A stretch of 62,921 nucleotides of DNA, counting the filler, from Sphacelaria rigidula (taxonomy: Eukaryota): NCBI GenBank assembly GCA_964200075.2. It is 9 parts of 9 records of this genome, joined end to end, with 100 filler letters (N's around TTAATTAATTAA, not from the genome) between each part and the next. Parts side by side here need not be neighbours in the genome. Positions count along the whole stretch, not along the records: positions 56,021 to 62,921 come from CAXNAA020017498.1; 8 more parts are not named here. One strand, written 5' to 3'. Position 1 is the stretch's first letter; each line of letters starts with the position of its first letter. Shown in pieces: positions 2,313 through 62,921 of this stretch. A program made the translations under genes and the position numbers. Below the pieces are notes generated by a model. That model was not told where the DNA came from and ran no database searches. It worked only from the letters and a program-made list of their open reading frames with translations.

Positions 2313-3760
2313 GTGAAGGACGCCAACATGGGCCAGCTTGGAGCAGCGGAAAAGAGAGAGCTGGTAGACACGCTGCTGAGCTTCATCGAAGCTGGCTTGT
2401 TCCCCACAGACCCCCAGCGGGTTCCCGCTTGTATCAACGGTGGGCTCGAACTCCCTCGAACCAACGAGTCATGTACGCCATTCGCAGATAAGCAACGTCG
2501 ATTTTCCCCGGAGGAACGTCACATGATCCGCGAAGAGATACGCAAGCTTCTTGATCGCGGAATCATTCGACCCTCAACCTCCCCGTGGGCAGCCCAATAC
2601 CTATGCGTGAAGAAAAAAGACGGCACCCTGCGCTGTTGCATTGATTGGCGTGAACTGAACAAACACTTTGTGTCGAACAGCGGGGGTCTCGAGGATATGC
2701 AATCCATTTTCGACGGCCTCAAAGGTAAGCGTTACTCCACCCAACTCGACCTGGCCTCCGGTTTCCACCAAATCGAGATCGCGGAGAAAGATCGCTTCAA
2801 AACGGCGTTCAGAGATGCAGATGGACTCTTATTCAAGTTTACACGAGCAGGCTTTGGTCTAATAGTCCTACCCGCCGCGTTCACCCGTCGGGTAAAAAGC
2901 ACGGTAGGACAGTTGGATGGAGTGTTCACTTGGCTTGACGATATTCTTATCGCGACCACATCCTGGGACGAGCATCTAGCCCTACTCGTGATCGTGTTAC
3001 AACGCTTGTTGGTCGCGGGAATCTCGGTGAACTTCGCCAAGTACATTTTTGCATCGGCGTCGCAAGCGTTTCTGGGCATACTGGTACATAGCAGCAGCCT
3101 TCAACGCGCGCCATCCAAGCTCGCCGCCATCGCCGAGATGCCCAGACCATCCACCGTCGAGGAACTACGTACTTTCCTCGGCCTCACAGGGTACCTGCGC
3201 CAGTTTGTTGAGAAATACAGCCTAGAAGCCGCCCCACTAACCGATCTGCTCCACAACAAAGATTTCGCATCCAAGCGTGCACGAAAGCTGTCCACACCAT
3301 GGAATACCGAGCAGGAAGAGGCGTTCCAAGCCCTCAAAGCGGCCTTGTCCTCGCCGAAGGTACTAACCTTCCCCGATCCCAACAATTCGTTAATACTGCA
3401 GACGAACACGAGCGAGGTGGGGGCTGAGATGGTGCTGGTGCAGCCGGTGGGGTGCGAAACACGTATCGTATCATTTGGCAGCCATCGATTCTCTCGTAAC
3501 GACTCGCATAGAGCACCCACAGCACGAGAGTGCATGGCTGTCTCGTGGGCTGCCCAACACTATAGATCATACTTGGCGGGAAGAAGGTTCACGTTGATCA
3601 CGGACTGTTCGGCACTCATACTGTTGTTCCGTAGCCGCGATCTCTGCCCCAAGCTACAAAGGTAGGCCTCGCTGCTAATGGAGTATGATATCGACCTCCA
3701 GTGGCGGGAGGGGTCCGAACATGTGCTGCCAGATGCATTGTCCCGACTCCCACACACGAG
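2313..3760 (+). pseudogene. Gypsy reverse transcriptase and RNase H
   Basis: 450-aa ORF with RT motifs (WLDD at the active site). It continues past a TAG into EYDIDLQWREGSEHVLPDALSR. Confidence 0.95.
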
Positions 3761-4289
3761 TGAGCCACAGCCCGACATTAATGACTCCTTTCCGGACGAT
3801 TTCACGTCGGGCTCGCCGACAGAATTTGTAGGCCCACAGGGACCACAACTCGCAGGACAACGACTGTCGGACCTACAACCGGAAGGAGCGGGTACGTCAG
3901 TAAGTGCAGACACAGGTATGCACTCATCGTCGAATGCTAACAATCCACTGGACATCGCCACCTTGAGTCTACTCCCTTTCTCAGAATGCGCAGTCATCAA
4001 CGATAACCAACCCGTGCGCCGTTCAACTCGTGTTCGCAGACCGTCAGTACGCCTGCAACCCCCCGATGCTGCGTACACAACATCTCTGCCCTTCACTCCT
4101 CAAGTTGTCGACCCGAATCCGCCCGCATAGCCAACGCCGATTGAAGTACCGCTACAGGTGCCTAAACCGACCATTCCCCCGACCACCGGTGAAGGGGTAG
4201 AAGTGGGTGAAGTGCTCCTAGCCGGGGGAGAATTGCCTACGAGGTTAACGGATCTGGACTTGACGGACACAACGGCGATCGAACGTGGA

Positions 4290-6099
4290 CTAAGGATACT
4301 CACCAACGTGAGCGATCTCCGGCACCACCAGCAAAGAGATCCCTTTCTCAAACAGGTGCAGTCAGATCTTGCAGGCAGCGAAACACCAGAGGCGGTGAGT
4401 GAGAGACGGTCAGATTACAAAGTAGACGAGCAAGTTATACTGTGGTACCGAGCAGCCAACGATAAGGAGCTGCTAACTGTGCCGAAAACGATGGTAGCTT
4501 ACCTATTGGCACTCGTGCATACACTCCACGAACATGTCGGAGTAGGCGCCACCCTTGCTCTGATACACGATCGCTTCCACTAGCCTACCATGACCCGTGA
4601 CACTAGACAGTACGTTCTATCGTGCAGCTGTAGACGACACCAGAAGGCAAACAGCCGTCAAATGGCAATGAGACCGGGGCGCACTTTACACCCATGGGCT
4701 GAGTTGGAAATCGACATACTAACCATTCATTGATGTGATGTCGCACCCGCGCGACAAGTACATTCTGCTGGTACTTGATCGCGCCTCCCGATTCCCGTTC
4801 GGATTTTCTCTGCCATCTAAGGATGCGGACGAGATCGCACACATCCTAGCAGAGTTATGCCTAACTTTTGATGTCACACAAATGATCCGCTGCGACAGGG
4901 ACAAAGAGTTCAGGGCTGATGTCGTCACGCATCTGTGCAGGTGGTTGAAGGTAGACATCGTTTTCGGGTCGTCGGACCACCCACGCGGTCAGGGAGCTGT
5001 CGAGCGACTTGGGAAATGGCTGTTGGACATGCTGTCAGAACTATGCAGGCTGTGGCCCCAGAGGTGGGATGAGTATGTCTCACCCGCCCTCTGGATCAAG
5101 CGCACATTGCCCGACACATCGCTCCCCTCTAACATGTCCTCTTTTGAGCTGCTGTTCGGCCGCAAACCGCGCACATCGCTAAACTCGCTCGTGCCCCTCT
5201 CACAAGAAGCAGAACCGAGCAAGGGACTAGATGCCTTCGTTGAACAGCGCAGACAGAACCTCCGTGAGGTGAGGATGGCGATGAACAAGAGGCAGGGGGC
5301 AAAAGCATCGTCGCGGGAGAAGGACAATACAGCCATCTCGAGGCCATCAACAGGCGTGTCGGTCACGGAAGGGAATCTGGTAATGGTGAGGGAGAGTGAA
5401 AGCTCCACGTATCGAGATGGCAGGGGCAGGAAGCTGCAGCACGACAGGTACACGGGACCTTGGACGGTGAAAGAGGTACTGATGGTCGGACACAGTCTCG
5501 AGGCAGTGATGCAAGGACGAAAACTACGTACTCGCACAGTAGCCCCGTCTGATGTCAAACCGTACCATGTACAGCCGCCGCACTTGAGACACTCCATTGC
5601 CGACGAGTTCGCCCAGTTCGCATGGGGATCGGACTTCAAGATATCGTCTTCACCCAACTCCTCACCCCGCCTCCTTACCCTAGTGAACCGCCGCGAGTCC
5701 AAATCGGGGAAAGGTGCAGGTTGGGAGTATCAAGGAAGGACGCAGAAGGGGGCGACATCAGATTGGCTTCCGGAGTGCAAAGTCCTGGAAAGCATCACAC
5801 CTCTGCAAATGGATGGCTTCCACGCACTGTGGTGTCTTTACCACCCGGCCAAGACACCAAGTACGCTATCTCGCCCAAGCATCCGCCACACACCCCTGTC
5901 ACGCAGTGACGCCCTAAACTTGTTCCCCATAGGTTATACGTTCTGGAAGAATTTCGGCGGGATCAAGCAGAGAGGACAAGTGTTCGACTACGGCAAGCGT
6001 TTCTGGAGAGTGCGATACGACGACGGGGACTGGGAAGCGAGAGAACTCCAGCAGCTAACGCAGTCGAGCGAGACGGCAACACCGCCAGTCACGAACTAG
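4290..6099 (+). pseudogene. Gypsy integrase with C-terminal chromo-like and Tudor-like domains
   Basis: QQRDP..VHTLHEHVGV zinc-binding remnant; rve core (VLDRASRF, RCDRDKEF, GAVER); GPW motif; C-terminal FPIGYTFWKNFGG..GQVFDY..WRVRYDDGDWE. Confidence 0.9.
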
Positions 6100-23640: not shown

Positions 23641-25580
23641 GTGAGGGTGAAGACAAGTGCTCTAGGCGGCGGTGCGAAGTGAGATTAGTGTGACGCAGAG
23701 CAGTGTGTAATAATTATCGTGTGTTTCGGTGTGATGACGATCTTGTAGCACATGCGATGGTGCCATGATCATCTGATGGTATCAGGATCTGCGCTCATTC
23801 GCTGTATGTATGTATGTATGTTTGTTTGTGTCGGTGAGATATGGTGTTTCTGAGTCGGCGTCTGTCGGGACGAGCTGCGCGTAGGATATTCGTTCAGCCG
23901 TCATTCAGTCCCCATGCAACATCACAGAAGCATGCTGCGGAGCAACCTGTCATTTTCGCCCATCCGGTTTCATCGAGAACCTGGTTCACCTAAGAGGTAC
24001 GTACTTGCTGGGGATGCTTACTTGTTGTTTAGTCATTGTTCGAGCAACAGTACACACGTGTGTTCCGGTTTTGATGTGTAGCATACACTCTCTGCAAAAG
24101 GGCTCCTTCTGGAGACTGATAATGCCTCCAATCTTTTACGGCCTGTCTCTAGGGCAAACAGCCCGAGCAGTAGCAGAATCCGATGGAAACCGTAGCCCCC
24201 CTGTGACCGTACAACCCTCCTAGAGTGCCCTGCGCGGTCTGATCACTCATTCGGGTACTTTCAGCATCTTAGACTACATCACCATAGACGATACAACCTG
24301 GTGGCGGTAGTGAGGAGACCGATCGATATAAAAATGGACGTCCTGTAACGGAAGTTGTAGTCCGATGGTTGAGAACCTTGACACGCGCATTGCTGATGTC
24401 GAAACAAGAAAAACAAAAACAATGCCTGTTTCGACACCCCACTCGTTGTCTCTCAAAAGGTATGCCCAAAACGAACACCTGAAAAAACGTCTGCAACAAT
24501 GTATGGGATTTCCAAGTACTTGGCAATGCATATCTCCGGGGTTTCTCACACGAGATTCGAGAGTTGAGGCCTGAAAGTGTTGAGGAGAGGTGGGCATTGA
24601 CCCGTTGCAAGCCGTCATTGCTGTAGTTATTGCTTGCCGTTGTTGTTCACCATGTTAGCCCCTTTCGCAGAAATCTTGCACCCGGGATCACAAAGCCATG
24701 ACACTAAAAAAAGAATTCGGGGGAAATGAACAATATACCCATGGACAGGAAAAATACGGCGCCCGAAAGAGCGGGATTCTGCAAACACGTCTTTGACAAC
24801 ATCAACAACGTAGGTACGGCTCGAAAGAACACGATGAAAATTGAAATAAAGAAATCGTCGGCTTTGCGGTACGTGGACCGTAGAAGACCAAGAGACCAAA
24901 GCAGGCAGACATAGGACGGCAGACCGAGCGAATCAGGACAGGGCAGGGCAAGGCAAGGCAAGGCATGGAAAAATAAGACAAAGGCACGGTAGATGACGCG
25001 ACAAGGGCCGAAGGATGATAGGTCCAAAATAACGAGGCTCCAGAAAAACAAGAACCAAAAATGAAAACGGAACGGACAAAATAGGCCAGAATAGGCTCGG
25101 ACAGAACAAAATAAAACCAAATAAAACGGTAAATCAACAATTCAAACCGAGAATAAAAGAAACGGCGAGTCAATGCGAGAGGAAACGAAAGGAAATTATT
25201 CAAAAGGAAAGGAGGAACGTGTCGTCAGTCGGTCATGAATCTCGCCATGGCGCAGGAAGGGCCGCCCTTCCCCTCCACTTCCCGGTTTCATTTTCTTTCT
25301 CACGCCTATTTCGCCGGTTCGTTTCCTTTCCAGTCCTCCCGTAGCCTTGCTCCCGCCCGTTCGTGCATTTATTTCGTTCTCTAATCTCTCCAAACGCCAT
25401 TTCGCCGATCCTTCCTGTTCTTGTCGATGCTGCTTGGCCATGATCCACCCCGTTCCTTTTCCCACCTTGCCATTCCATTCGTACGGCTACTTGGCGCTCG
25501 TTTACGGCCGCCTCTCCTCCTCTCTTCTTCGATATCGGACAGCCTAAGGTCCTGATCTAGGCATATTACATCCGGCCGGG

Positions 25581-25880
25581 CTACTGCTCCCCTGTGTTCC
25601 CCTTTGCCCGCTCCAACGTTTCCAGCATCACGGGCTTCGGGAGTCGGTCGTCTCCCACGCGCATGACGAATCCCGCGAAGAGTAGTCTCCGTTTGCGCAC
25701 GTTTGCCTCGGGGGTGTCAGTACGCAATATGGAGGCCTCTGCAAGCAGCCCGTATTTGCTGCAGGAGTGATTCAATGTACATACACGAATTCGTTAAGCA
25801 AACTGATCTCCTCGCTGCACCCGTACTATGACTGCAGGACACGTGCGGGGTGGTGTCAATACTACTCCATAACTCAGCCA
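25581..25880 (-). pseudogene. RTE-like LINE ORF C-terminal fragment
   Basis: VRKRRLLFAGFVMRVGDDRLPK matches the RTE RRLRW.GHV.RM...RLPK motif. Confidence 0.75.
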
Positions 25881-26865
25881 CTTCACTGCCTATTTCTACC
25901 ACCACATATATTCGATATTTCTGACTCGCGGTCAACTTGTTCTAGCTTCGCAATAACGGGAGCGTCCTTGCTTAGAGTGCAGTTACATGCTCTCATCACC
26001 ACGTGAACCGAAATCAGTTTCACAGGCATGACCACGATTGATTGGTAGTTCAATCACTTGGATTCAGAGTACCCAGCCTCCGCCAAAGTTAGACTGAAAT
26101 GAAAACGTGTGGTGATTATTTTGCGTATATACTCCACCCCGTATACCGTCAGCACATTTTTTTGCGTTTCGTAATGCTGCGTTTCATTCTTGGATGATAT
26201 GTACATGGTCAACGCCGCGGGGTTGTCACACGTATTGATTGCTTTCCCCGCAACGGCCTGTTTATTAAGTACGGTGCCCTTATCCGAGCAAAAGCGTGCG
26301 GTGCGTTTTCTTATTGCTAAAACTAAATGTAAGGGAGAGATACCGCCCTTCTGCTCATATACAATTATCATGGGATCCAGGATCGTTCATCGAATCTTAG
26401 GGAAGAGTGGTCCCGCGATAACCCCCTCCAGAAAAAATGGTGGGTTCGACGAGGCAAAAATCTACGCGCAAATCGTATTTTCAAAAGGCCAAGCACACCG
26501 AGCAGCTGAGAATTCTCACACTTGGGATCGTTTCTACGAATGAATGTCGCCCATAAGAGACGCTTTACGCAGTCTGAAGGCGGGATGCATGCCACTAATC
26601 CTCAGAACGCGGATAAACATAACACATGAGAATAATCAGGTAATATACTGAAGTGGCATCAATTTAACTCAATACAAGTATCCATGATCCAGATTTGCTA
26701 CCGTGCTCAGCCCATGAGCTGCTGCGGCTTCTTCTCCAAACATGCATGACCTTTGCCATTACACAACGCACACAGCTATCACTGGTGCTCATGTACCTGG
26801 CTGTCGATCCACTGATCGTGGCGGCGAAGCCGCAGAAACTCTTGTGTATATATATATATATATTT

Positions 26866-27338
26866 TGTAATGGGGTTATGCCGGGTGTGTGGTAGACACG
26901 CCTTACTTGCAAGGCAGGAGGACCAGACAAGAGGCCTAACACGCCAGCTGAGGGGCAAAGAACAGTTCCACAGCGTACGACGCTGATGTTCTGTGCCCTA
27001 GGTATCAATCAGTTTCACACACAGGTTATGATAACATCACTTCTTGATTGTTGAAGTCCTCAATCTCCTAAGTACTTCTCAGTGCTCAATCTTTCTCCCT
27101 GTCAGGCAGTCAGTCTCACCGGAGATATGAGAGTTTCCTTGTCGGGATGCAGCGGTGTGTTCGTCGAGGGCGATCCCATGACTATCATTCCTCACTGTAT
27201 ACGAGTTCATAGTCGTATCCAACCAACTCTAAACAGACCTGCAATCTAAGAATAACCCCTGAAATACCATATCATCAAGCTAGACCTGTCAAGGGGTCTG
27301 AGGCGGCATGATGGAGGCTAATATGCTTCCTCACGACA
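26866..27338 (-). repeat. Probable LTR
   Basis: Minus-strand TGTCGTGAGG...CCCCATTACA termini after a G-rich tract, next to a (TA)n run. Confidence 0.45.
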
Positions 27339-28013
27339 CGAACCCACCCAGACGAACCTTTATTCCAGCTGTAAGGATTTATCCTCGAAGCAGCGAAAAC
27401 TAAGGTTTTTCTTTACTCGGGAAGACATGAGCGGCTAATGAGGCACACCAAAGGAAACACTCCCGTACCCACACTCCCACAACTAAAAAGTTAAGGGAAG
27501 CATATACTGCTTCGAGGAGCAGAAAAACTGCTTCGAAACGCTGAAGCACAAGCTGCCTCTGCGTGCTAGCGATCAACGAAGAAGCACAAATTGCTTCGGC
27601 GTCCTAGCAAAACGAAATGGAAAACCCGGGAGGTACAACAGGGAGCAGAGCTTTTACCTGGGGGAACCCAAAGAAAAACGGCAAGATCAGTAGCGGCCGA
27701 CGCATGTAGGTCGATGGCAAGGGAATCAAAGTCTGAAATCGGTGATCCAACGAGATCGAGCGTCAGCCAAAAGAAAGGGGAGTACCGGAGCTTTAGTGGT
27801 CGTAGATGGTTGGTGGCTCCTAGTAGCCCAGTAGTCGTAGATACTTGGTGGCTCCTAGTAGTGTCCAATCGTAGTCCGATGTAAGTAGTCCTGTGGTGTA
27901 TGTCGTAGAGTCGNNNNNNNNNNNNNNNNNNNNNNNNNNNNNNNNNNNNNNNNNNNNTTAATTAATTAANNNNNNNNNNNNNNNNNNNNNNNNNNNNNNN
28001 NNNNNNNNNNNNN

Positions 28014-28332
28014 TATCACATCCGACAACAATCTCCGCGCTGGTCGTTCGGGTCTGGTCGATAAATTTCGCCTCGCTGATTGGGTAGGTGATGTGATCGG
28101 GTAGGTCGCTCGAAGATTTGTTTTTTATTATTCCACCAACGCGGGGTAAACCCTGTATTAGTGGGGGTCTGGTCCCAAGGGGGTTCAAGGCTGTAGAAAA
28201 ACAACAATTTCTTGCCCGAAAAGACGTCAAATGTAAATCGTCAATTTTCAATCAACGGTTCCAAAAGGGTTCATCCTCCGGGTTCCCATCCTCAACGAAA
28301 AGCTCCATCCTCAATTTCGATGATCGGCTGTT
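28014..28332. repeat. Terminal part of a dispersed element; also at 42018-42084
   Basis: ATCCTCCGGGTTC.CATCCTCAA..AAAGC.CCATCCTCAA....GATGAT.GGCTGTT is shared; both copies are cut by a contig start. Confidence 0.6.
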
Positions 28333-28921
28333 AGACGGACTGGGAGTGCAGGATCGGCACATCGTTGCGTCATTAGACGGTGGTGTGGTTGTCGACCACC
28401 TGGTTATTACGCCCCGTAATTTTGCTTTGCAGTGCCTACTCTACGTCGGAAGGGACCGGGAGTGCAGACTTGCCACATAGATGCGTCAAAACACAGACGG
28501 CGGTGTGGTTGTCGACCACCTGATTATTACGCCTCATATTCTTGCTGTGCAGTCTGTGGTGTATCGTGCCGCGGCTGCACGAGCGGTCTGCAGCGTACTG
28601 GATCTTCTAGTGTTGAACGTGTCGAGTGTACGCAGCATGCGTTTGGACATCGCACCATGACTCCCGCCGCGAACCTCCCTGACTACGGTAGAGCAATTGC
28701 TCGGTGATGGCGGTCGCCTCACCGTCGACGTACTTGACTACATCTACGTGCGCTGGGTACTCGTGGCCGCCGCTCGCGTGTCGCGCCCTGACGTTTGATA
28801 CCAGATAAGAGAGAGAGTGTACCGAAGATGATCCAACACCTATTTTTTGGTTGTATAATCCATGGTTGATTTGGCATTCGAGTTATGAGGGTAGACAGCG
28901 AATGTGCCTACCCGCTGTGTA

Positions 28922-30831
28922 CAGGCTGGTTCACGGGAAAATTGACAAATAATTTTTGTCATCAGCAAATGCCTTCTGCAATACGCACCCACTAGTCGCA
29001 TACATGGTATCATACTGACCGCAATGAATATGCGAAGAGGGTGACAGCCGGATTTTTTTCAAGGCTACAGCGGTGGCGCTATGGACAAATATGTGTCTCG
29101 ACCAATCAGTGCCTTTCAACCTGTTCCGAAATTGAAAGTACGATTTCCAGGCCCAATTTCCACCGAATCTCCACATACTTCAAATCGTAGTGACCGTCAT
29201 CATCTCAAGAATTCAACGGGAGAGTAGGATTTGAAAACCGTTCCAACGGGGTCGAATCATACCCGAAACCGTAATGTTTCGGTGATGTAGAGTTTAGCGT
29301 CGTCTAATTTCCACTCATGACACACAGGGAAGACTCAGGAAGCCTCGTGACGATTTACCTCATATCTGTTGAAGAAAAGCTCAGGTCATCCTCAAACTTG
29401 GCAGTTCCGTAGGTACTGATGCTCCGAATGGAAAAATTGTGTTCTTGGCAAGTGTTCGAAGATTCTCCATTCTCTCCTGACTTCCGGGCGTCTCAGTACG
29501 GAGACCCCCGAAAGGCGGTACAGAATGGCTCAAAAGAATAAATAATAAGATGATGCGTCCCAGGATGATCCAAGGAACACATGTAGAATCTATGGTGGAG
29601 AAACTCGAAAATCTCTACAATTTCTCCTGCCTAGACGTGAAATTCACCCTCAAGGATGTTTTCATACTCAAATCAAGTAGTTAGGAGTTTGCACGTTTCA
29701 AACTCACATCCTCGCACAAACGCGTAGATCTTCACGCATTTATTTGGGGGTCAGGCCGGATGTTATGGCAACAGATCTTTGGCCCACAAATTTTGGAATC
29801 CTGGAGAAACAAATCCGCGGCAAATTCGGTTTCGGGAACGATATTATGGCAGCACACGGATCTTCATACCATACTGTTCTGCTTTGTATACCTCCACCAG
29901 GGTTTCGAGTTTATGCTTAGCGTACTTCAACAGCTCACAGTCCCATAGATGTCTCGTGGGCTGTGGCGTGCTGTAGTAATGTAGCGTCACTGCCGCAGAG
30001 AGGTCATCACCACCCCACTAACACCAGTGCCGGTTCTTTCTAGCACATAAGTAAGCGACCGTACCCCCCTCGTTCTTGCTCAAGTTGAACTCTTCATCGA
30101 AGGATTGCAGAACTACCCGCCAGACAGCGACAGTGCGCATCACATGTCGACTCTCTGAACGTCTCTGCAATGGTTTTGTCAGGAGACCGAGGAGCAAGGC
30201 GTGTCGTTTTTTGTCTCGTACGCGCGAAGCGGGCTTCATAGCGTGTCGGCTGCGGCGTGTGGTTTACTTCGTGTGTTGTTGGTGGTTGTCGACAGGTTCA
30301 CTCACGAAGGCGCAGCCAGCACGGCGGCACATCTAAGAAAAACGCGGCGTGACCCCATGATGACGGTCTGCCAGCCAAAACGTAAATATGTGTGCAAAAA
30401 TCTGTGCTTGCTGACCCCCGCAAGTTTGCCCAAAATTCTGTGGGACTCGGGCCCCGAATCTTGGCGACGGATTTTTTCACCCAAAATTTCGATAAATTTG
30501 TGCCCATAACGTTGGTGTCACACGAATGTTGAAGATCCGGGGCCGATGATCTGCTGCCGTTACATCCGGCCTCAGGCCCTGAAACTTTGCACGGACGAGG
30601 ATTCTTTTCATAAATCCATACACCGTTGACGGGGGTCCGACTAGATCGAAGTTTTCACGGAAAAATCGGGACCCCGCAAAAACTGGAAAAAACTCAAAAA
30701 GTAGAAAATCTCGTCAACACAAAGTTGCGTAATGACCCACAGAACACCTGTGCAAAATTTCCGGATTCAACTCCTTCAAACGGCGTGAAGTTTTGTCAGA
30801 GTGTTTTTTTTCCTTTCCGTGAACCAGCTTG
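28922..30831. mobile_element. Non-autonomous Tc1/mariner-like element
   Basis: TA|CAGGCTGGTTCACGGGAAA...CTTTCCGTGAACCAGCTTG|TA: TIR with TA TSD. Confidence 0.75.
29754..30571. mobile_element. PIF/Harbinger-like non-autonomous element nested in the mariner-like element
   Basis: ~32-bp TIR GGCCGGATGT.A.GGCA.CAGATC.T.GGCCC with 3-bp TSD TCA. Confidence 0.8.
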
Positions 30832-32884
30832 TACCTCTACCGTAACGAAATTGCTCATTTTGAGGTCACCCCGCCCCTCTCGAGTCTCGTGCACGGCTCA
30901 TAATTTTCCGCGGGAGATTTTCAAACACACATGGTCGACTCTGTGAGCTTGTCCGATGCTCCGCGGAGAGACCTCCCCGCCCCTTCCCCCTCCTCCCTCA
31001 AAAACCACTCCCCCGGGCTCTGGAAACCCCCGGATGTCTCGGAGCTGTCAGCCTGTACAACTGTTCCGAGACTACGCTCGTCGTCGAAGGTCGTCGTCTA
31101 AGGGTCAACAGTACGTAGGTATATATGCCATGCTGCACCCAGCAGCTGCCCAAAATGAATTGCACAATGTGCAGTGCAGACAACAGTGCAAGGCCTGTAC
31201 TGCCGCATTCAACAGCACAGAAGGATGTGAATGTTGGGTTTGCCAGTGGTGTACAACAACTGCCCTAAATGTGATGTGGGCAACGCGCAGTACAGACAGA
31301 ACCAAGTAGTACAGTCCTGCCTGTACTGCCGCATACGGCGGTGTACATGCGCACATGTCAGGTTGCAGACGACAACATACAGCGACTGAACTAAATTTGA
31401 TCTGGAGGAGTGCGGTACAGACTGCGCCGTGGAGATTTCGGGGTGAGATCGTGTGGTATCAGTCGGTGCTTCAGTAGCAACTAACTTGACCGCCACATGT
31501 ACCTGTTGAATCCACAGCATTCCCCTGAGACTTGATGTGATACAGAGATCATCCACGGTGGAAATCGTGTTAGCGAGCTAGTCTAGTGCGATTATACGTA
31601 TCTGCAACACGCGACTATAGAACGGAATTGCCGCATCAACCAGAACACGAACAAGGAGACAGGAGAGAGTTGTCAGCTACCATGAGAGTGGATTAAGAAC
31701 CCCTAGGAGTCGCTGCGTCCCTCATCAGACTTTACGTTACACAGATGAGATACGGTACATGCTTGTCGGTTGGACTACAAACTCGAGACTCACGTTGTTC
31801 AGGTTTTTGCCTCTCCTGATGGTCGATCGTGTGGCCCGGGCAATACCAAGCCGGTGTCACTGTGATGGCTGGGGATGTGTCCCTAAGTGGCAGTGAGGGG
31901 CAAGGGGTGTGTCTCCTACACATACCCAACAACACATGAACGATGAACGAGGCGTTTCTACCTCACATCGAGGGGCTGCGGGTCTGAGGAGACGCTATGA
32001 AACCGTTACCGTGTAACGGAACTCTTGACGTTTCGTGCTGGTTTCATGATTTAATTCATTTCGCAAGCCAAAGCCCAGCGTTGCCTCTCCAGTCCTTCAA
32101 ACAATTAGTGCAAGTTGTAGGTAGATGAGCTACTTGCTTATTTACGACCGTCAACCAAAAGTCAATGGGTAGTTGGTACAACTATGAGCACCTCGATTTT
32201 GGGGCATGATTTCCGGATAGTGTGTGCACCTCCATACAAAAAAAAACAAGGCCGATATACAACATTAGGCAGCAGGTAAAGGGAGTGGAGCCGTTGAATA
32301 GAACGGGGGGGGGCGGGGAGAACAGAAAAAGCAATATGCACCCGGCCTCGATCGTATATCTACCAGCACCAGATCGATATGAAGCAGGCACACCATATAC
32401 CTTTGAGAGCAAACGTTGACGTACGCACAACAGGAGAGCCAGGGGAAACACCAGACACGAAGATATACAACCGCCGCCGATCGACTTCCCACAAGCAAGC
32501 ACCAAGCCAACGCAAAGCAGACGCGCGGGATACCTGCGAAAGGAAGCGGCGCGCTGATACAGGCTGTCGCTTGCGCCAGAGAGACACAAGTTCATCTTAG
32601 CTGTTTCGATGTTCTGTGTGACCGCGCTCGGTCGTCTCACTGTGGTATATAAACAACTTTCGAATCGACCGTTCTTACTCGTGGTCGCGGCACCTTTACA
32701 GTCTGCCATCTGTGCCGCAAGACGGGCCAGCTCTGGCCAGCCAGTGTGCACGGTGTCCATACACGCAGAATTTGCGCGACTCGTGTTAGATCAGTGTATA
32801 CGGGAGTGCGGGGTTTTCGAATCTTGGTGCTCAGGGAGCTCAAGCAGAATCAGTCGTGTATACAACATTAGTAGGCAGCAGGTA

Positions 32885-45393: not shown

Positions 45394-45598
45394 GACACTT
45401 TCTACGATACCCCCCCCAAAACCAACCAAAAAGTGTCACGAAAGAAGTGACCGTACAGCGCCTAATGTTTGGGTTCAGGCTGCATGAAGCGCCTCATATT
45501 GGCGACATTGGCCTCGGCTTTTCTCATTTCAATTTACGTGAAGATTTTGCCTCCCCAAACCATGCACGTTTTTAGGGGGGGCTATCGTACAAAGTGTC
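45394..45598. mobile_element. GACACT-terminal MITE with 4-bp TSD
   Basis: GAAT|GACACTTTCTACGATA...TATCGTACAAAGTGTC|GAAT; partial copy at 49020-49096. Confidence 0.85.
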
Positions 45599-48500
45599 GA
45601 ATATGCGCAAGAAACACAAGGAAAAAGAGTTGCAGCGATGTTCTGTCTGCTGCTCTGCTTAAGGCAGAAGAAGATGTTTCTCACTGCGGACGACGCGTAG
45701 AGTCGCTCTTGGTGGATCCATTCGCGGAGTGCGGCGAAACGGACGGCGATGTGCCGCGACCTCTGCCTGAAGTTCGCCTTCAAAGCTAGGATCATGGAGC
45801 TCTGGTTGTCCGCATACAAGGTGGAGGTGCATCGCCGTGACCATCCTAGCACCCCCAGTATAGAAGACAAGTAGAGCCCGTGCTTGGCGGTGCTGTTCAT
45901 TGCGATGAGCTCCGCCTCCGATGTCGCTTGCGCGGTTATGCGCTGAACTTGACTGCCGAAGTGAACGAGCCCTCCACTCAGAAAAACCATTGATCCGGTG
46001 ATGAATTTGGTTGATGGTCCAGATGCGTAGGAGGCGTCACTGTAGCAGGTAATGCTGAAGACGCTGGCGCACCTGTAGGTAATGACGAGACCTGGGTTGC
46101 ACTTGAGGTACCGAAGAATCCTTTTGGCGCTCGCTGCGCTCGCAGTGGTCGGACTTGACATGTGCCGTGCTACCTGCATGACGGCATGCGCGATATCAAA
46201 CCTTGTGCAACTCAACAGAAAGATTAGGCTTCCCACCAGGCTCGGGTAGTCCTTTTTCTCGCTTGCGGAAAGAAGTGCAGATTCACCAGTTGCGTTGTTG
46301 AGCTCGGCTCCTGTCCCTGGAGTGTGCGAGGGATCGCACGTATCCATGCCATAACGCTTGAGCACAGATATGGTGTATTTCTACTGGCTGAGGCTTTTTG
46401 TGCCGTTCTCCAGGTCTTGATGAATGTCGATGCCGAAAATCTGAGTCGCATGACCAAGATCGGTCATCTTGAATGATTGCTGAAGTTCCTGACGCACTTG
46501 ATGCAGCACGTCGGTAGAAGGGCCCGTGAGACGAATGTCGTCGACGAAGAGTGTCAGCATGCAGTAGGCGCCTCCGCTGCCCTTGGTGTAGACACAGGGG
46601 TCAGATGCTGTAGGTGTGAACCCTTTCGTGCGCAGATCCTTGTCGATTGTTGAGTTCCAAACGCTCGGAGATTGACGCAGCCCGTACAAGCTTTTGCGCA
46701 GACGCCAAACCAGCTGCTTGCCAGTGGTGCTGTCGAACTTTTCGAATCCTGACGCCTGAAAAGTGTACACCACTTCGGAGAGGGGACTGTGTAGGAACGC
46801 TGTCTGCACGTCCATGGCGATGACCGGCCAGTTCTGGGCAGCCGCTATCGCCAATAGAAGTCTTTGGCTTCCGATCCTGCACACCGGTGCAAATGTGGTG
46901 AAACAGTCTATGCCGTGCTGTTGCGCCCAGCCCTGAACGACGACCCTTGCCTTGAATCGCCCATCCGTTTTGATCCGATAAACCCAGCGCGTGCCGATGA
47001 TGGAGCAACCGGCGGGAGTCGAACGAGACGAAATCCGCCACCTCGTGGTCGGCTAGGCTGTCCATTTCTTTGTCCATGGTCTTTTTCCATTCCGCTGCCT
47101 GGGGTGAGTCCATGGCCTGCTTGTAGGTGTTGGGCCATTGGATTGCTGCAGGAGGAAGAACTTGATCAATGCCCACTGCTCCGATGTACGAGGTCACTGA
47201 GTCCAGCATCGCTTGAGATGAATCCTCCTGCGCGAAGGTGAGCTGTCGTAGCGCCCGAGCCTGTGATAGATTATTCATCTCTGTTTGGAAAGGATCAACG
47301 GATCCGGATGAACGCAGTCGTCGTGTAGAACCCAGTGGTTCTTTGAAGCGCTGTTCCTGTCGGTTGTTGATATCGTGACCTTCGCCGTTGTCCTTGTTGG
47401 AATTCAAGAATGCAATTCCTTCGTGGACTTGCTCCAGATCCGCCATGTCGACCGATTATTCTTCTTCACTATCCGGAAGATTGGTACAGCTCAGGGGTTC
47501 CGGAACGGGCTCGATGAAGGTGACATTCCGGGAGGTTGTAATGCGTCCCGTAGCCCGATCGTAGATACGAATGGTTGGGTTGTCGTCGTTGTAGCCAACC
47601 AAAACACCTTCCCACGCTTTTGGTTGCAGCTTGGTGGTATGACCTTCGACGTGGACGAAGGACCTGGAGCCGATGATCCGAATAAAGGAAAGGTTTGCCT
47701 GCTTGCCGAACATGCGATGGTAGGGCATGTCCCCTTGTAGAGCCTTGTGTGGTAGGCGGTTTATAATGAATACCGCAGGTGCCGCAATCTCCCCCCATAG
47801 GTGCTTAGGCAGACCCGCTTCGTTCAGGAGGCAGCGGGTCATGTCCATGACGGTCCGCCCGTCGCGCTCCGATGTGCCGTTTTGTTGCGGCGTGTGCGGG
47901 GAGCTGAACTGCTGTATGATCCCCGTAGTTTTGCAGTAGTCGCCGAACGCAGTGCTGACATATTCCCCGCCATTGTTCGATTGTAGACGTTGTACCCGCA
48001 GACCGAATGGAATGGCGAGGTCTTGAACGAACCGTACCAGAGAAGAAAGGGCGTCACTTATCCTTTCGAGGAAGTAGACGGCCTTGAGCCTGGAGTAATG
48101 ATCGGTAAGCTTGGCCATGTACTGGTAGCCACCGATTGCAGTTGGAGTGACGGGCCCTAGAAGGTCCGTGCTGACGAGTTAAAGTCGTTGCGTGGCGCCT
48201 GTGCTCCTGGTCTTGGGATGATTCTGCTGTGTGCTTTTGTTTAACTTGCACGTCCCGCACGCTAGAAAGGAGTCGGAAAACGCGACCCCGCTCTCTTCTA
48301 TCCGCCCGACTTGTAGTAGCACTTGGGCATTGGGATGTCAGAGTCGCTGATGCCACGTGTTGGCCATCGATGTACCCGTTGAGGTGGCACATGCTGTTTC
48401 CTTTTCCGTGTGCTGGATCAAAGAGGCGCTGGATGCTATATTTGCTCTTTCAGGCGGCAGATTGGCGCCGGAGACGGTTATAAAACCGTGTTGAGTGCAG

Positions 48501-55920: not shown

Positions 55921-56240
55921 NNNNNNNNNNNNNNNNNNNNNNNNNNNNNNNNNNNNNNNNNNNNTTAATTAATTAANNNNNNNNNNNNNNNNNNNNNNNN
56001 NNNNNNNNNNNNNNNNNNNNGGGGGGGGGGGGGGTGCGAGTGTTGACAGTTTACAAGGAGAAAGAGAAATCGTGACAACTGTCGGTGCGGAGTCGCCCTG
56101 CTATCGGTGAAGGCTACGCCTCTAAACGCTGCCGATGATGGGGTTCATGAAGTACCCATGGATGTTGTCATGTTTTCCCGTAGAGAGACGGAAAGTGTGA
56201 TGGCATGCAAGTAATACGGGCGGCGATCGCGATCACTCAC

Positions 56241-59200
56241 GAGTACTCGATGGCCTTGTGGTGTTCCTCGTATGTGTGCGCCGTCGAGGACAGGAGCACA
56301 GTCACGGAGTCTACCCACGACACGAACGACAGGTCCCCACTGCGTGCGAAGATCATATCTCCCCGCTTTTTCGCTTGTAAGCCGCGACCGTGCTAAAAAG
56401 CGAAGGCTCCAGCAACACCCGCCCTGTTATTCCGCACGGTCCCGACGCTAAAGATGCCAGGCTCCAGGAGGCACAACTGCAGCATGGGGGAGGTGAAGTA
56501 GTTGTCCATAGCAACATGGACCCCGTTGTGTTCGACCCGCTCTCCGAAGACAGGGGAAGCTTTTAGGAGGACGTACAGAATCATCCGCGTAGTGCGCCCC
56601 AGCGGGCAGTTCGCCCACTGAGTAAGTTTCACGTCCCCTTCAAAGCCAGCGTCCCCCACACTGAGGAAACAGTATCCTGTCCGGCAGCACACTGCCCATC
56701 ACTTGATACCTGATGCCCGGCGTGACGGTAACGGAACAGCACGCGAGGCAATGCCGTGTCACGAAAACCGAAAGTCATTTGTTTTCGGGACAAAAGGCGG
56801 TGACCACCAACACATATGAGCCTGCAGCGGACATCAAAGTGCTTTTGACAAGTTCGTCAAAAGTGGACAATGACAAATGATGTGCACCCGCGGTGCATAA
56901 GAAAAGGGCACATCCACCTTCGACCGCAACACCGACGAGAATACATAAATATCGCGGTTGCAAACGGGCCGGAGAAGGCCGAATGTCGGTTGACGGCGAC
57001 TGCTCTGTTCTTGACACCGTCACCCGAACACGATCGCCGAGGTAGGCCCTACGATTATATCGAACCCGGGGAAAGCGCCTACAATACCGCTCGTGACGGG
57101 GCCAACACGCGACGATGAAGGAGAAGGCTATATCCAGGTTATACAACACTTGCCGTGTTTGATGGGCTTGTTCTTGTTGAACCTGATGAGGAAGTGAGCA
57201 ACCCTCGCGGTGCACTTCACCATCTGCTCGTCAAATGAAATCTACACCCCCACGTCGGCAGCCTCACTCCACGCCTTGTTCAGAATGTCCTCAAGCTCCC
57301 TGTGGAAAAACATAAGGAAAAAAATACAATCACAAAAAGAAATCAAGGCCCCGGGTGACGGTGAGTAACCAAGAACAGGCTTGACAAGCCGGGAAGAAAA
57401 ATGACGCAGGGCGAAAATGTGAAAAGTCCCCAACTATGAGTTTCTGGGCAAAGATGAGTAGCCGCGCAAGAGTATTGGCATGGCACCAACATATGACCGC
57501 GCAACAAATAGCACATTGGATGAAGTCCATATGCCGAAATCGGCCTTGACAGGCCCGACATACGTGACAACGACAAAAAAAAACAGCGGTAGCCGAATGT
57601 GCAAACGGGAGTGAAAGTGGGAGGCACAAAACATTGCGGAGAAGCCGCAACGAAGTACAACAAGAGAGCAACAGAGAATCGCAGACAACCGCGAGGAACG
57701 GGATCACGATGGTTCCATGCAAACATCCAACACGAACTACAAGCATAACAACAAAATAGAACACACAGAATATGATAAACTGGCAACATGGAAGGTCGAA
57801 AATGAACGCGATACGCCCGAAACAAACTATCGTCACCACCACAACAGAAATACACTATCGAAGTCATTGCGAAACTGTATGAACCCGATAAGCCGACGAG
57901 AAAGATCAGGGCCGGATAAGATCACAAGTGTGCCAAGAGACGAGCCAGCTACATGGGTCACAAGCCGGGAACAAAAGTAGTATTATTTGTTTTCCCTGGG
58001 GATTCGATTATGTGAGCACTCATCCTACCGAAATTTCACCAGATGGGTATTGTGTTTTTGGCGGGTCCGACAGAGCGCGAGCCCAATCACCTTGTTATGC
58101 CCACTGCACGGATCCACCCTACAGTTTATCGAACATAAGTACCTGATGTGAGCTTTTCCGTCGTAACCTTTCTCCCCTCTTGTCGGCAGCCCGCCAGGCG
58201 CGAGGTGGAAGAAGCGCGACATGAGTAACATGAAGAAATCGCGTGGCATGGTCCTTCGCACGTGCGGAAAGTCGTGCTTCCGTCCCGTTCCCCAGTGGAA
58301 TCTCATCCGCGGGAGCTTTGTGATGCCCATTTCCAGCAGAATCCCTAGGGCCCCGTACACATGTTTCTTTTCGAAACCATCGTCTGGTACGACAGCGCTA
58401 CTTAGGTTTCTGGTCTTCAACCGGTGTCGCGCTTCTCGCGTTTGCTTCTTGCCCCCACTCCCGACGGATTCGTCCTCACTGGTGCAGAAGTCGACGTACT
58501 CATTTGTCTGCGCGGCATTGGGAAAAGCAAGGAGAGTGTGTCACGGATGTTGCGTCTATGTCCCTCGACCACGGGTCATATATCCTGCACAGCAGCCGAT
58601 CGCCCTGGAGGCTCAGCGATAACCTCGAAACCTTCTGACTGTTGGGTCGTGGGTTCAAATCTCGGAGCGATCGGGGAATTTGTCTCACCATGTCCAACAG
58701 TGGAGAGCGACTACATCGTGGGTACACAAACTACGAGCCAACGGTCGGCGAGGGGAAGGGACTGCTGAACCCCTCTCGCGATAAAAAAATGAAGATGCAA
58801 AAAAAAAATCCTGTGTTGGCCTTCCTCCTGTGTGACCCCGGTGAAAGCAAGCGGAGTACTAGAAACAAAAAAACAAAAAACTGCGTTGACCTTGCTCCTG
58901 TGTGATCCCGGTTGATGCGTCCATATATACCGAAAAATGTAGACCGGCGTCCACAACGCATGGGAGGACTAGACACACAATGAGGTATTTTTACAGTGTA
59001 ATCTTTTGTTTCGGATGCGCGAACTGCTTTGCATTGCGTGGCAGCGATGATGCGATTATGTGCGGTAAAAGGCACACCTATCTCGCAGATCTGGACACGA
59101 AATGCCACCCGCGCCCGGGGCCGTGTAAATCCCGCACACTTCTGCAGCACAGGGATCCATACTGTGCAACGGTAGGAAACCGACACCAACCGTTTGGCAT

Positions 59201-60805
59201 GATGTGCTTTTTTTCCATGGCGAAACGTTGGGCATCTAATTTTGTGACAGGTTCCACCGACGGAGTTGCGTGTTGGCGTGGGCGATCGAATTGCCAACCT
59301 GCTCATAGACAGTAGAGGCAGTGCAAAACTGCACGTGCTTCAAATCTGCCTCGCATCCTCATGTATGCAGAAAGTCAGAAAGCTGTGCTGTGTGAATGTC
59401 GCGTCTGCCGCTTCTTTTCTACATCGCGCCTGTATGCCGTGCGAAACACGCGCTGTATCTACACAACAGTACGGGCCGCCACTGCTGTACAGTTTGTACA
59501 GTCTTACTGTGCTATATATAAACGAAGGAGGAGGCACCTTCACGAATTCCAGTTAGCCTTTTCGATTCGAAGCGAGCGAATTCGTTCGCATTCAAACATA
59601 GCGAAAGGAACTGAATCAGTTCCGCCGCAGCAATTCGTTCGAGTCCAAGAAAATTGGTCAGACACGGCCTTCGTGTCAGTTTGTGTGATCGATCGACGCC
59701 AGCAGACCCCCCGTTTGTCAGCACGTTGTGATTGACCGTCAAACACGGTTGCCAGCTTCTAGCGCAAACTATAGGTAGAACTCAACAAAGAAAGAAGCCC
59801 TACCATCTCTCGCGCACGAAACCGTGATAGCGGATACTAGCGTCTTGAGGTCTCGTACGTGATGGGCAGCGGCGAAAGAAAGAACCTAACCGAGTCGCCG
59901 AATGCAAAACAATTACTGGATTTACCACTTTGAACGTGGGGTACCGTAGCGGAAAGTGCAGTCAGTCCGTGCCGTTTGCAACCAACAGCAGTGATGGAAT
60001 ACCTACCGCGTTGCATAGCGACAGCATGGATCCGATGGAATGCTTCAGATCCGCGCGGACCCAAACCGAGGAAAAATGTTTGAATTCCATGAAAGAAATT
60101 CCGCATAGCCCTCTCCTTGACCACGGCAAACACCACAATTTGTCAACGCATACCCGGCCCTCCTTCATGGGGCGAAACCATGCAGGACGTAAATGAAGGG
60201 CAGCTTCCCATTTTTGTCTTTATTTTTGCCTCAAAAAGCGGCATGCAGCTGTCTATTGTTTACAGTTTCAATATTTCCACATTTCAGGTGAAGGGTGCGA
60301 CAACAGCTCGTCGCATTGTATCTCCAGCAATTTTAGATGTGCTACAACGTCCTTGCAAAAGTCCCGCACGTTGCAACAACCCGGGGTGCAAACCAAGACA
60401 ACCTCCTCACATATTTCACGATGAGCTCCACCGCCTCCACAGGGAACATGATCTCAAAGAATGTAAACGCCAGGTCCTCGATGCTTCCGCGGACCACGGT
60501 GCGATACCCCGCTCCATCGACCTTCGGCAGGCGCTGCAGGGTTGCTGGCGTCAACGTGAAGTCGCTGCTGCGCTTCTGCTTTTGCTCCTCCTGGTGCTTC
60601 GGACTGGACTCGTCAGCTTTCACCCCCTCTGTCGTCCACTTAGCAGCACCCACCCGGTCCTTCCCACTACCAGCGTCCGATGCGCCCGAACCGTCGTCAT
60701 CTTCGTAGTCGCCGTCTTCGTCGTCGTCATCCTGGATGTCGTGCGTGTTAGGGGCGGCATGAGGACAGGGGCCGGACGAGGAACGTCGCCGACGATGCAC
60801 CAAAT
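56241..60805 (-). pseudogene. Intron-containing piggyBac-like transposase (exons ~60805-60411, 58507-58143, 57299-57154, 56709-56241)
   Basis: Spliced product FFEIMFPVEAVELIVKY|TNEYV..GILLEMGI..MPRDFF..RFFHL..HIR|ELEDILN..FDEQM..FNKNKPIKHG|IK*WAVC..GY..MDNYFTS..GTVRNNR. All three junctions are in frame; three premature stops. Confidence 0.9.
58595..58980 (+). mobile_element. Probably full-length tRNA-derived SINE family A inside a transposase intron
   Basis: CCGATCGC...GCGATCGG acceptor-like stem, B box GGTTCAAATC and a body shared with 1-75 and 14008-14225. Confidence 0.8.
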
Positions 60806-61896
60806 CTGTCCTCGTATAGCACTTTGTGACACAAGTGAACTACAGTGAGGCGTATAATTGTTACACACACGCACCGGTGTAAGGGCATTGGACGCGAGAC
60901 ACCGTGGTCCCGGATCGAGCTGGAGAGTGAACACAGATCGACCAGTTCCACATTTGGAACCGCACTTTACAGCTGGGATGCGCTGGCCGTGTGTACGGCG
61001 CCGGTATAGTTTACACGAAGCATCTCGCGTTTCGGGTTCCAGAATAGAACATGACTTGCAGTACCATCCGGGTATCGGCTTGGGCGACCGCGGGGCCAAA
61101 TCGACTGGCAGGTCACGGGCCACTGCGGGTTCAATTGACGTGGGCTATGTCGCGAAAGGAATCAACAGACGTTGTACACCGGAAACTCGAGTTTGAATGT
61201 CTTTTAATGCCTCAATGGGCCTGTTGACTTCATCACAAGTAGTTCTCGAGGGGTGGTGAAATACGTGACACTATATCGCGGCGCGTCGCGCAACCGATAA
61301 CGCTTGATTTCAAGTGTTGCGTGCGGGTTCCGTTCCGAGGCATGGAGACCTCAGCAGGGACTATCGATGCCCATGGAATTGACCACACGCGCGCAGCGGC
61401 GTACAGACCCAACACTCACTCACTCAAACGGCGACAACTCAGCGCGCGCACATAGAGATTGCTTGACCATGAACACAAGATGATCACACCGCTCATTGCC
61501 CGCAAGACATGAATTGTGTTGTACACCAAAAAAATGCAGCCGCCACATCGGCTGTGCACTGTTTCTGTCCGCACATGGCGCGGCAGGAGGCAGCTGCAGA
61601 TTACACGCGTGCACACGTCGAGGGCAGGCCCATACCGCAGGGTCTCTGCAGCACAGCCGCTGCAGAGAGTCAAGTATAACATACGCAGACAGTACCGTCC
61701 AGAAATACACAGCTTGATCAGAGAGATCACCACATGACAGTACACAGCAAAACCTACACCGGCAGCCGCTCCGCTGGTCATGGATATTTCGCCGCCGCCG
61801 ACACTACCCTCGGTCGAAGTTACTCCCACGGGGGCCCTACAACGAGGCCACCCCAACGAACCGCACCATAAGCATGCTACAATTGTGCTGAACTCA

Positions 61897-62921
61897 CCCA
61901 CCCGTCAACGTTACCTTGAAATATGTGTCCTTGGCAGGCTTCATCCTAGCGACGGTCTTGTACACCTCCTGGTGCGGCTTCTTGGGAATTGTTTAAACAT
62001 CCCGTAGCACCGCCGCCCACGATCTCGGGACCGAAGCGTGGCCGCCTCGTGTCTCGAGATCATCCTCCCCACCCCGCAGCTCGCCATCAGAGCCATAGTA
62101 CGGCTCGAGGTCCTTATCCTTCCCGGCCGCACTCTCGGCCTCCTTTTCGTTTGGCTTTCTGACCCGCATCGCCCCCCAGCGGCCCACCCTCCAGCCTTCA
62201 TGTCTTCCACAAAACATCGTGCCAGGCTTCCGTTTCGCCGTGCACCGCTTGCCCTTCCGCAGACCTCTCTCACACACTGCCGTGCAGGAATCATCGCGCG
62301 TGTTTCCCGCTTTCGGAGCCACACCAAGCGAAAAGCGAGGCTGGGAGGGCAGAGGCGGCGGTAGGGGGGACGCCGCCGCCAGCACCTGCAAGTTCAGCCG
62401 GTGTTCATAGGGCTTCAGGTGCGGGAGGGGCAACTCGTCCCGCTCTACGACGTCACGGACAATTTTCGCCACGCCTTCCCGAGCCGAACGATTGAGGAAC
62501 AACACGTTGAAATGGTTATGTCGGGACAATTCTGGTGGACTATCGGGCGATGTTTCGCGAGCGCGGTTCCCGTCAGCTGCAGAACAGTACAAAAGATGTA
62601 CCCAAGCATCCGCCTCATTCAAGTAATACATTCCGTCCTTTGAGCTCTCCACACTGTTGTAAACCTTGACCGCAGCTTTGTCGCCCCGGGGCTCCCACAC
62701 GGCGATATTGATATCCAGAACAGCACTGGCTGCAGCGAGCCACTTTACGTTCAACCACAGACCTTCAGTTTTCGCCGCTTGCTTCAATAGAACCCTGAAC
62801 CACCCGATGGTTTTAGGATCAAACGGGGGGGTGTTGTCTCCAAACCACTCCGTCAAACCGAAGTGCAGGGCCATCTGCCACCCTGCTTTCGTGATGCGAT
62901 GCTGGTCCTCTTTCGCTTCGT
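61897..62921 (-). pseudogene. OTU-like cysteine protease C-terminal half plus C3H zinc finger (5' truncated)
   Basis: GLWLNVKWLAAASAVLDINIAVW..VHLLYC..NHFNVL; CTAVCERGLRKGKRCTAKRKPGTMFCGRH. The frame is open to the window end and continues past a TAA at 61993 to a GG|GTGAGT donor. Confidence 0.6.

Follow-up and report, generated by a model that had tools for sequence, protein, structure and literature searches.

The window, a stretch of 62,921 nucleotides of Sphacelaria rigidula DNA (GCA_964200075.2), contains in its last part, contig C17498 (positions 56021-62921), a minus-strand gene of a piggyBac transposon, in which half of an OTU cysteine protease domain and the transposase exons are found on the same spliced RNA. 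Comparison of genomic copies and a structural model suggest that this is probably an intron-containing piggyBac element encoding an OTU domain, zinc finger, linker, transposase and Cys-rich tail in one unit, with the OTU domain acting as a working deubiquitinase tethered to the transposase. The element would be a TTAA-bounded DNA transposon of brown algae, about 10-15 kb long, with one transcription unit encoding an N-terminal OTU cysteine protease followed by a CCCH finger, an acidic linker, a DDD transposase and, at the C-terminus, a Cys-rich tail; its ancestral, probably active form presumably encoded one polyprotein. The likeliest job of the OTU domain would be removal of ubiquitin from the transposase itself, or from chromatin or repair factors at the excision or integration site; the transpososome would then survive, and breaks would be repaired in favour of the element.

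The assembly comprises 244 Mb in 27,214 contigs and is fragmented; the other parts of the window are short contigs separated by spacers, and the end of the window is the end of contig C17498. An earlier sequence-only reading of this contig had recognized an OTU-like half domain, a C-x13-C-x10-C-x2-H finger and an acidic tract running into the N-terminus of a piggyBac transposase. All of these were found (Table 1), the acidic tract opening exon 2 and the further transposase exons following downstream on the same strand.

Transcripts and splicing

Four of 11 sequencing runs were compared, namely, X2, X6, X7 and X8; runs X6-X8, all of one study, are presumed to be RNA, a label backed by their exon-only cover and splice joins. 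X6 and X7 each contain a contig (2537 and 2550 nt) whose consecutive pieces correspond to 62921-61914, 60730-60411, 58504-58090 and 57298-57167, and X8 contains the same first two joins. In the bins of 60872-61795, cover is 0 in X6, X7 and X8, and 215-355 in X2. Since the RNA pieces are consecutive and these bins are uncovered, the OTU exon is spliced directly to the transposase exons, and the Cys-rich stretch lying between them is intronic. The large multi-exon piggyBac encoding an OTU protease, proposed from sequence, is thus represented by OTU and transposase exons on the same spliced RNA.

Two details of the sequence-only reading did not hold. The Cys-rich stretch at 61122-60876, taken there for an exon, has zero cover in the three RNA runs and no Pfam match; none of five aligned sister copies contains it, and among 5 candidates scored in the genome the only match at E<=0.1 is the stretch itself. 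The frameshift thought necessary at one junction is not needed, because the OTU exon joins the transposase exons directly, with donor 61915|61914 and acceptor 60732|60731 both of phase 0; the real break in the frame is the TAA codon at 61995-61993. The possibility that the Cys-rich stretch is a displaced piggyBac tail was also considered and rejected (best E 1.5 against the C-terminal Cys-rich domain of the family).

The contigs of X6 and X7 cover 62921-61914 without gaps, with one differing letter, and extend 659 and 672 nt past the end of the window, which is sufficient for the missing half of the OTU domain. In the transcribed allele, the donor of exon 3 (58142) is lost and splicing occurs at 58091, so that the frame shifts and a stop follows within three codons; TGG is present at two of the transposase stops of the window, including the site of the TAG in exon 4. 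With the exon 3 donor lost and the frame shifted, this near-identical allele encodes no working transposase either.

Genomic copies, termini and transposase of the family

Matches to the OTU half occur at 11 sites distributed over 10 contigs of the assembly (15 candidates scored). Exon 2 is located downstream on the same strand on 7 of these 10 contigs, exon 3 also on 6, and all exon matches are colinear. The GT donor of exon 1 occurs at the same codon in all 10 copies in which the anchor was found, and the phase-0 acceptor of intron 1 is intact in 7 of the 9 sister copies found. Intron 1 itself gives no blastn match to the sister copies, although the exons match.

Sister copies have a sharp 5' boundary, TTAA followed by CCCTTTTGGGA. 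TTAA with CCCTT precedes the OTU start codon by 331-345 bp in four of five copies tested, and two further copies begin alike. Copies C2853 (10,092 bp) and C4531 (10,422 bp) are bounded by TTAA on either side and lie in unrelated flanking DNA; both have undergone internal deletion but retain the OTU exon, exon 2 and the beginning of exon 3. The terminal inverted repeats (TIRs) are imperfect, about 12 bp long, of the form CCCTT(T)TGGGA, and begin with CCC and end with GGG as in piggyBac. The TIR pattern with <=1 mismatch has 585 matches in the genome versus 0 for the reversed control, and paired matches also mark short non-autonomous elements. The termini of the window copy itself are off the contig, and the TTAA and TIR features were found in its sister copies. 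Independent occurrence of the two parts had been named as grounds for abandoning the link; the OTU and transposase parts instead travel together inside TTAA-bounded elements.

The Pfam family DDE_Tnp_1_7 scores above its cut-off on exon 5 (E 2.4e-5) and reaches E 0.007 on exon 3. The motif GVDVAD is present in the last exon of C18225, C4999 and C6124; together with SFDEQ and MDNYF it is taken here to contain the three catalytic Asp residues of piggyBac. A Cys-rich C-terminal tail was recognized by eye, not by profile, in C6124, C4999 and the Ascophyllum protein P0017 described below. The window copy belongs to a diverged subfamily, 64-87% identical to the other copies, with the likeness confined to the exons. 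In each of the six segments in which the window was compared with its sisters, the proportion of synonymous differences (pS) is higher than that of nonsynonymous differences (pN), in five of them by a factor of about two or more; these comparisons share the window's branch and are not independent. For the OTU half, pS is 0.53-0.62 versus pN 0.31-0.38 (window against 7 copies), and for exon 2, pS is 0.47-0.62 versus pN 0.25-0.31 (window against 9 copies). The substitution pattern shows purifying selection on all exons tested.

Several related elements were noted in the genome. C2853, C4531, C20675 and C9394 form a non-autonomous subfamily with one common internal deletion, which removed nearly all of the transposase core; the OTU exon is retained in the two members whose 5' end falls within the contig. 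C4080, C19 and C15653 contain elements of ~170-1050 bp with TTAA/CCCTTTTGGGAC ends and unrelated interiors, representing families of miniature inverted-repeat transposable elements that share the TIR. Copies C6124, C2853 and C4531 have a long 3' arm of ~3.5 kb from the end of the transposase to the TIR, with internal duplications. The Ectocarpus piggyBac described below has a tail-to-tail second gene in this region, whereas the arm of C6124, which is decayed, revealed no clear open frame.

A second piggyBac family, with transposase exons 26-49% identical, contains on the minus strand of C8075 a degenerate OTU-like remnant ~1 kb upstream of the first transposase match. This remnant scores 13 bits with the OTU profile, versus 7.7 for the best of 1000 shuffles, and E 0.08 in the six-frame search. 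By this comparison, the link between OTU and piggyBac may predate the family studied here and extend beyond it.

The OTU domain

The window copy holds only the His half of the OTU domain. The catalytic Cys had been expected beyond the window; the window indeed stops at the contig end, the RNA runs on past it, and the motif GNC is present in 6 of the 9 other OTU-bearing contigs, ~190 codons before NHF, which is itself present in 5 of the 9. The N-terminal OTU half of the window copy was not found in the assembly. The segment C21809:1-500 is a divergent 5' end located at a contig end, with a TIR variant and the start of exon 1, and could be the missing start of the window subfamily.

Structure was modelled with AlphaFold2 for the OTU domain of the sister copy C4113 (233 aa) from a 17-sequence alignment, with a predicted local distance difference test score (pLDDT) of 76.9. 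A search for an OTU fold, by which the sequence-only reading was to be checked, returned OTU proteins: in Foldseek, OTUD1 ranked first (E 2.1e-4), with only 2 matches in all at E<=0.001, and the best VIA-align match was OTUD2 (Z 9.9, root-mean-square deviation (rmsd) 3.3, 135 aligned). The 31 Foldseek matches listed and the top 31 VIA-align rows are all OTU-family or OTU-related deubiquitinase entries. In the model, Cys22 is located at the start of the helix 22-32 and His211 at the start of the late strand 211-216, as in OTU enzymes. In the ESM Atlas, the domain of C4113 adjoins clusters with PF02338 OTU on 34% and 20% of members at a score of 0.93, while a search with the finger-plus-linker region gave only scores <=0.80. 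On the basis of the model, the domain is a divergent member of the OTU family by fold, not by profile score.

Sequence searches with the domain gave little. No match was found in the Pfam scan of the OTU half of the window alone, phmmer with the C4113 OTU region found nothing relevant among PDB sequences, and the OTU profile matched PDB sequences only at E 0.17-1.6, these matches being OTU entries. In scans of metagenome and viral contigs, no loci were found. Word-indexed protein searches missed even the known relatives, and their lack of matches carries no weight.

Relatives in other brown algae

The protein search of 1.84 billion representatives yielded 15 matches. One of the clusters includes CAM9438324.1 (P0017) of Ascophyllum nodosum, 1161 aa, in which DGNC begins at 71 and YNHY at 285; the finger, a DDE_Tnp_1_7 domain (E 1.6e-27) and the Cys-rich tail are also present, so that OTU, finger, transposase and tail are in one stop-free chain. 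No RepHel match was found in its Pfam scan. The five-exon model of the window aligns with CAM9438324.1 over 812 columns (31% identity, E 7e-108), and its OTU half alone is 29% identical to the Ascophyllum protein (E 9e-14). The finger motif is kept in five database proteins (P0002, P0006, P0009, P0015 and P0017) with spacings of 13-17/10-11/2. A fragment from Pylaiella littoralis also matches. The Ascophyllum gene model shows that the same architecture is present in a second brown-algal order.

P0006, a raw open frame of the cluster of CAM9438324.1, departs from that protein about where intron 1 of the window begins, which suggests that the position of intron 1 is shared with the Ascophyllum-type gene. 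Two relatives of the domain without GNC, P0010 and P0014 (one of them from Pylaiella littoralis), are possible inactive variants.

Weighing the OTU-piggyBac reading

A number of observations stand against a single OTU-piggyBac unit with a working deubiquitinase. Three of the 10 OTU contigs are without transposase exons: C8837 is rearranged, and the other two stop short, within about 1.4 kb. In C9394, exon 2 is present, intron 1 is truncated and ~6 kb of unrelated DNA lies upstream in place of the OTU exon. The assembly, a fragmented one, yielded no intact autonomous copy. The OTU domains score below the PF02338 cut-off of 23.3 bits (C4113 16.3, E 0.015; P0006 17.4; P0017 15.0), because of which routine annotation would miss them, and the modelled sequence is that of the sister copy C4113 instead of the window's, with F instead of D before GNC. 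The contigs of X6-X8 document single junctions, not one full-length molecule, and the RNA label of these three runs, all of one study, is presumed. CAM9438324.1 is a predicted gene model with the third-Asp motif GGVH, which has His at the third site. Finally, 7 of 12 copies have the fusion broken by the stop at 61995, which the RNA probably retains. The fusion of OTU to transposase that had been suggested from sequence thus stands at the level of spliced RNA; given this stop, it is uncertain at the protein level in this genome, while the Ascophyllum model is open.

The in-frame stop between OTU and transposase

Among 12 copies, the codon at 61995 is TAA in six, TAG in one, TGG in one, TCA in two and CCA in two; Ser is present at this site in P0002, P0006/P0017 and P0015. 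A private nonsense change was considered and rejected, as the stop recurs in 7 of the 12 tabulated copies. The stop either arose repeatedly in decaying copies or is old and read through or bypassed, the latter being rather unlikely.

An old, kept stop would make this a regulated two-product gene, in which most ribosomes would terminate and yield a free OTU-finger protein of ~430 aa acting in trans, while minority read-through, or re-initiation at the ATG at 61944, would make the transposase and cap its dose. Gag-pol read-through in retroelements limits the dose of product in such a manner. Such regulation is possible, its probability being low yet above that of the other alternatives. In its favour, the stop occupies the same codon in 7 of 12 copies from lineages about 30% diverged, including the TAG variant, and parsimony requires 5-6 steps from a stop root versus 7-8 from TCA. 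The 16 codons from the stop to the ATG are the most constrained segment (pS 0.43-0.59 versus pN 0.11-0.22; Fisher p 0.005-0.02 on two comparisons), and the Met at 61944 is conserved in at least 10 copies (those with the donor shown), with ATT in C16557. The RNA contigs cannot read TCA at 61995, because both T>G changes of each run lie elsewhere; the one differing letter of exon 1 in X6 and X7 most likely lies at 62041-62069, as suggested by overlapping X8 records.

Other points stand against it. If the outgroup proteins with Ser are included, a root with a stop requires one step more and, twice, a reversion to precisely TCA, and parsimony is near a tie. The Trp codon at 62757 became a stop in three lineages, so chance recurrence occurs, although the changes there are transitions, ~four times commoner than C>A. 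No conserved stem-loop was found 3' of the stop in 7 copies (z -1.6 to +1.5), and its 3' context is AAA/ACA, which is not known to be leaky. The RNA at 61995 may also read CAA, GAA or AAA.

The evidence would also accommodate a combined form, in which a piggyBac element with its own deubiquitinase has its transposase metered, in this genome, by a conserved leaky stop, with much OTU-finger protein, little full-length product and possible self-trimming at LxGG; this is a doubtful proposition. If true, it would mean polyprotein control in the manner of retroelements or viruses in a cut-and-paste DNA transposon.

Other explanations

Viral OTU-like papain proteases process polyproteins, and the algal OTU domain might likewise cut its own linker after the LxGG at 62079-62068 and free a transposase with an acidic N-terminus. 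LxGG is present in 8 of the 11 genome copies listed (the other three having LxGE, LxGK and LxGV) and in P0002, within an unusually conserved acidic linker that contains a second RGG nine residues on, and viral OTU-like proteases, such as the turnip yellow mosaic virus (TYMV) proteinase (Z 4.9), are among the fold matches. However, the scores of these viral proteases are far lower than those of cellular and nairoviral OTUs (Z about 9); in the Ascophyllum-type protein the motif reads LQGE, and P0015 is without it. Self-processing is unlikely.

Slightly less probable still is that the OTU domain is captured cargo of no catalytic use, a ubiquitin-binding or inert hitch-hiker. Some database relatives, P0010 and P0014, indeed lack the Cys motif, and non-autonomous deletion copies multiply whatever they encode. 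Against this, this genome and Ascophyllum have both GNC and the motif of the catalytic His in common although overall identity is about 25%, and pN is lower than pS throughout the OTU domain. A role in countering ubiquitin-based silencing, as proposed in the sequence-only reading, is conceivable.

Use of the Cys-rich stretch as a cassette exon, with a phase-1 donor near 61901, an acceptor at 61122 and a donor near 60874, is very improbable: the sites are GT/AG and phase-consistent in the window, and, contigs dropping rare isoforms, minor use is conceivable, but the stretch has no RNA cover in three runs, is absent from sister copies and lacks homologues elsewhere in the genome. That an OTU-bearing element of the Helitron or Mutator type came to be nested by chance beside a piggyBac element, which the three OTU contigs without a transposase exon might suggest, is refuted by the TTAA-flanked copies, the spliced RNA and the single-chain Ascophyllum model, and disagrees with the common spacing from TIR to Met, the presence of both termini in two copies and the conserved splice phase; it retains next to no probability.

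Features of the window copy

The gene of contig C17498 is represented by five exons (Table 1). The minus-strand frame stays open from 62919 to 61996; the 5' part of exon 1, with the start codon and the catalytic Cys, is off the contig, as are the last exon or exons and the 3' TIR. The window copy is a decayed member of the family: its five-exon model contains four in-frame stops in 768 codons, two of them nonsense codons of exon 5, at 56701 and 56395.

Table 1. Features of the OTU-piggyBac gene on contig C17498, in window positions.
Feature	Position	Strand	Remarks
Exon 1, 3' part	61915..62921	-	OTU half-domain, Pro-rich spacer, CCCH finger, acidic GG linker, conserved helical-type motif
C-terminal half of OTU cysteine protease domain	62440..62919	-	Catalytic His in HNHFN 62520-62506
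Zinc finger C-x13-C-x10-C-x2-H, weakly like zf-TRM13_CCCH	62200..62286	-	Pfam E 0.064, below cut-off
Conserved linker, LRGG 62079-62068 and TRGG 62052-62041	62041..62079	-	Resembles ubiquitin C-terminus
In-frame TAA between OTU/finger and transposase parts	61993..61995	-	Recurrent across family copies
In-frame ATG, 16 codons past the stop; possible re-initiation site	61942..61944	-	Candidate start of a stand-alone transposase
Exon 1 donor, phase 0, AAG|GTAACG	61915|61914	-	Comparison of copies and RNA contigs
Intron 1, GT-AG, CTAAC branch-point-like site before acceptor	60732..61914	-	Spliced out in X6, X7 and X8 contigs
Copy-specific open stretch in intron 1 ('Cys-rich exon' of the sequence-only reading)	60875..61122	-	Outside observed mRNA
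Exon 2, 321 nt, phase 0 to phase 0	60411..60731	-	Acidic tract and transposase N-terminus; RNA contigs; matches P0017 residues 517-594
Exon 3, start of DDE_Tnp_1_7 region, IVKY|TNEY junction	58143..58507	-	Pfam E 0.0073
Exon 4, first catalytic Asp (presumed), SFDEQ 57238-57224	57154..57299	-	Nonsense TAG 57244-57242; GC-AG donor
Exon 5, second catalytic Asp (presumed), MDNYF 56509-56495	56241..56709	-	Pfam DDE_Tnp_1_7 E 2.4e-5, above cut-off

The intron following exon 4 (donor at 57153) is of the GC-AG type, and the GC donor is present in all seven copies shown. Intron 2 contains at 58562-59023 a very high-copy repeat with tRNA-like loose ends, probably a short interspersed element, with a summed depth of up to 1.5 million in X2 and 25,000-31,000 in the RNA-like runs; no tRNA gene was found on contig C17498 by ARAGORN. 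The remainder of the window (1-55920) contains decayed Gypsy-like and Copia-like retrotransposon frames, for example at 2280-6099 and 45529-48178, as judged by eye.

Comparison with known systems

The algal domain shares with cellular and viral OTUs (OTUD1/2/3, Otu1/2, otubains, nairovirus OTU) the fold (Z 8.8-9.9, rmsd about 3-4 A) and the positions of the Cys and His motifs. It differs from them in being 10-19% identical, ~200 aa long with insertions and below the Pfam cut-off, and no subfamily is conspicuously closest to it.

The literature search, covering titles and the starts of abstracts, with Repbase Reports and most subscription journals outside its scope, found no OTU domain in piggyBac. 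A published element of the same superfamily is PiggyBac-1_Ec32 of Ectocarpus, 9,969 bp, with the same kind of termini and a tail-to-tail second gene (PMC12477816); compared by description only, it may be of the same lineage, and OTU has 0 occurrences in the main text and five supplements of that paper. In the text available of a preprint on piggyBac homologues, OTU or protease is not mentioned (10.1101/2021.12.14.471607), and in the part consulted of a review on giant transposons, Helentrons are the only elements for which OTU is mentioned (PMC6431247).

Protease domains have been described in other transposons. In the sections consulted of PMC2836005, DDE transposases of Ginger1 carry C-terminal OTU or Ulp1 domains, a role of ubiquitin or SUMO removal in transposition is proposed by the authors, and the Ulp1 of Mutator, the OTU of Helitrons and a Trichomonas transposase with Peptidase C19 are summarized. 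In the corresponding part of PMC9741609, Helitron-borne VTD domains are active deubiquitinases, and transposon OTUs are stated to be untested. Because piggyBac has mature cell-based transposition assays, the question of the function of a transposon-borne OTU is directly testable in the element described here.

Mutator and Mutator-like elements with Ulp1 and the Trichomonas transposase with C19 resemble the algal element in combining a ubiquitin- or SUMO-like protease with a DDE transposase, but, as described in the sources at hand, they have other protease folds and belong to other transposase superfamilies. Helitrons and Helentrons likewise contain a deubiquitinase domain within the mobility protein; in the accounts consulted they are rolling-circle elements with RepHel and without TIRs or DDE chemistry, whereas the algal OTU exon lies inside TTAA-flanked TIRs. 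Ginger1, as far as the source covers it, has a similar organization, with a cut-and-paste DDE transposase and an OTU domain in one intron-containing protein; it differs in its Gypsy-integrase-like transposase, the C-terminal position of OTU and the animal hosts listed, the brown-algal element having DDE_Tnp_1_7, an N-terminal OTU with a CCCH finger, and TTAA-flanked TIRs of ~12 bp. The brown-algal element works like an OTU-bearing Ginger1 element but belongs to piggyBac. It may suggest a way to stabilize engineered transposases. It adds piggyBac to the unrelated superfamilies, Ginger1, Helitron and Mutator, that carry ubiquitin- or SUMO-cleaving enzymes, and lends further weight to the view that transposition is generally held back by ubiquitin signalling.

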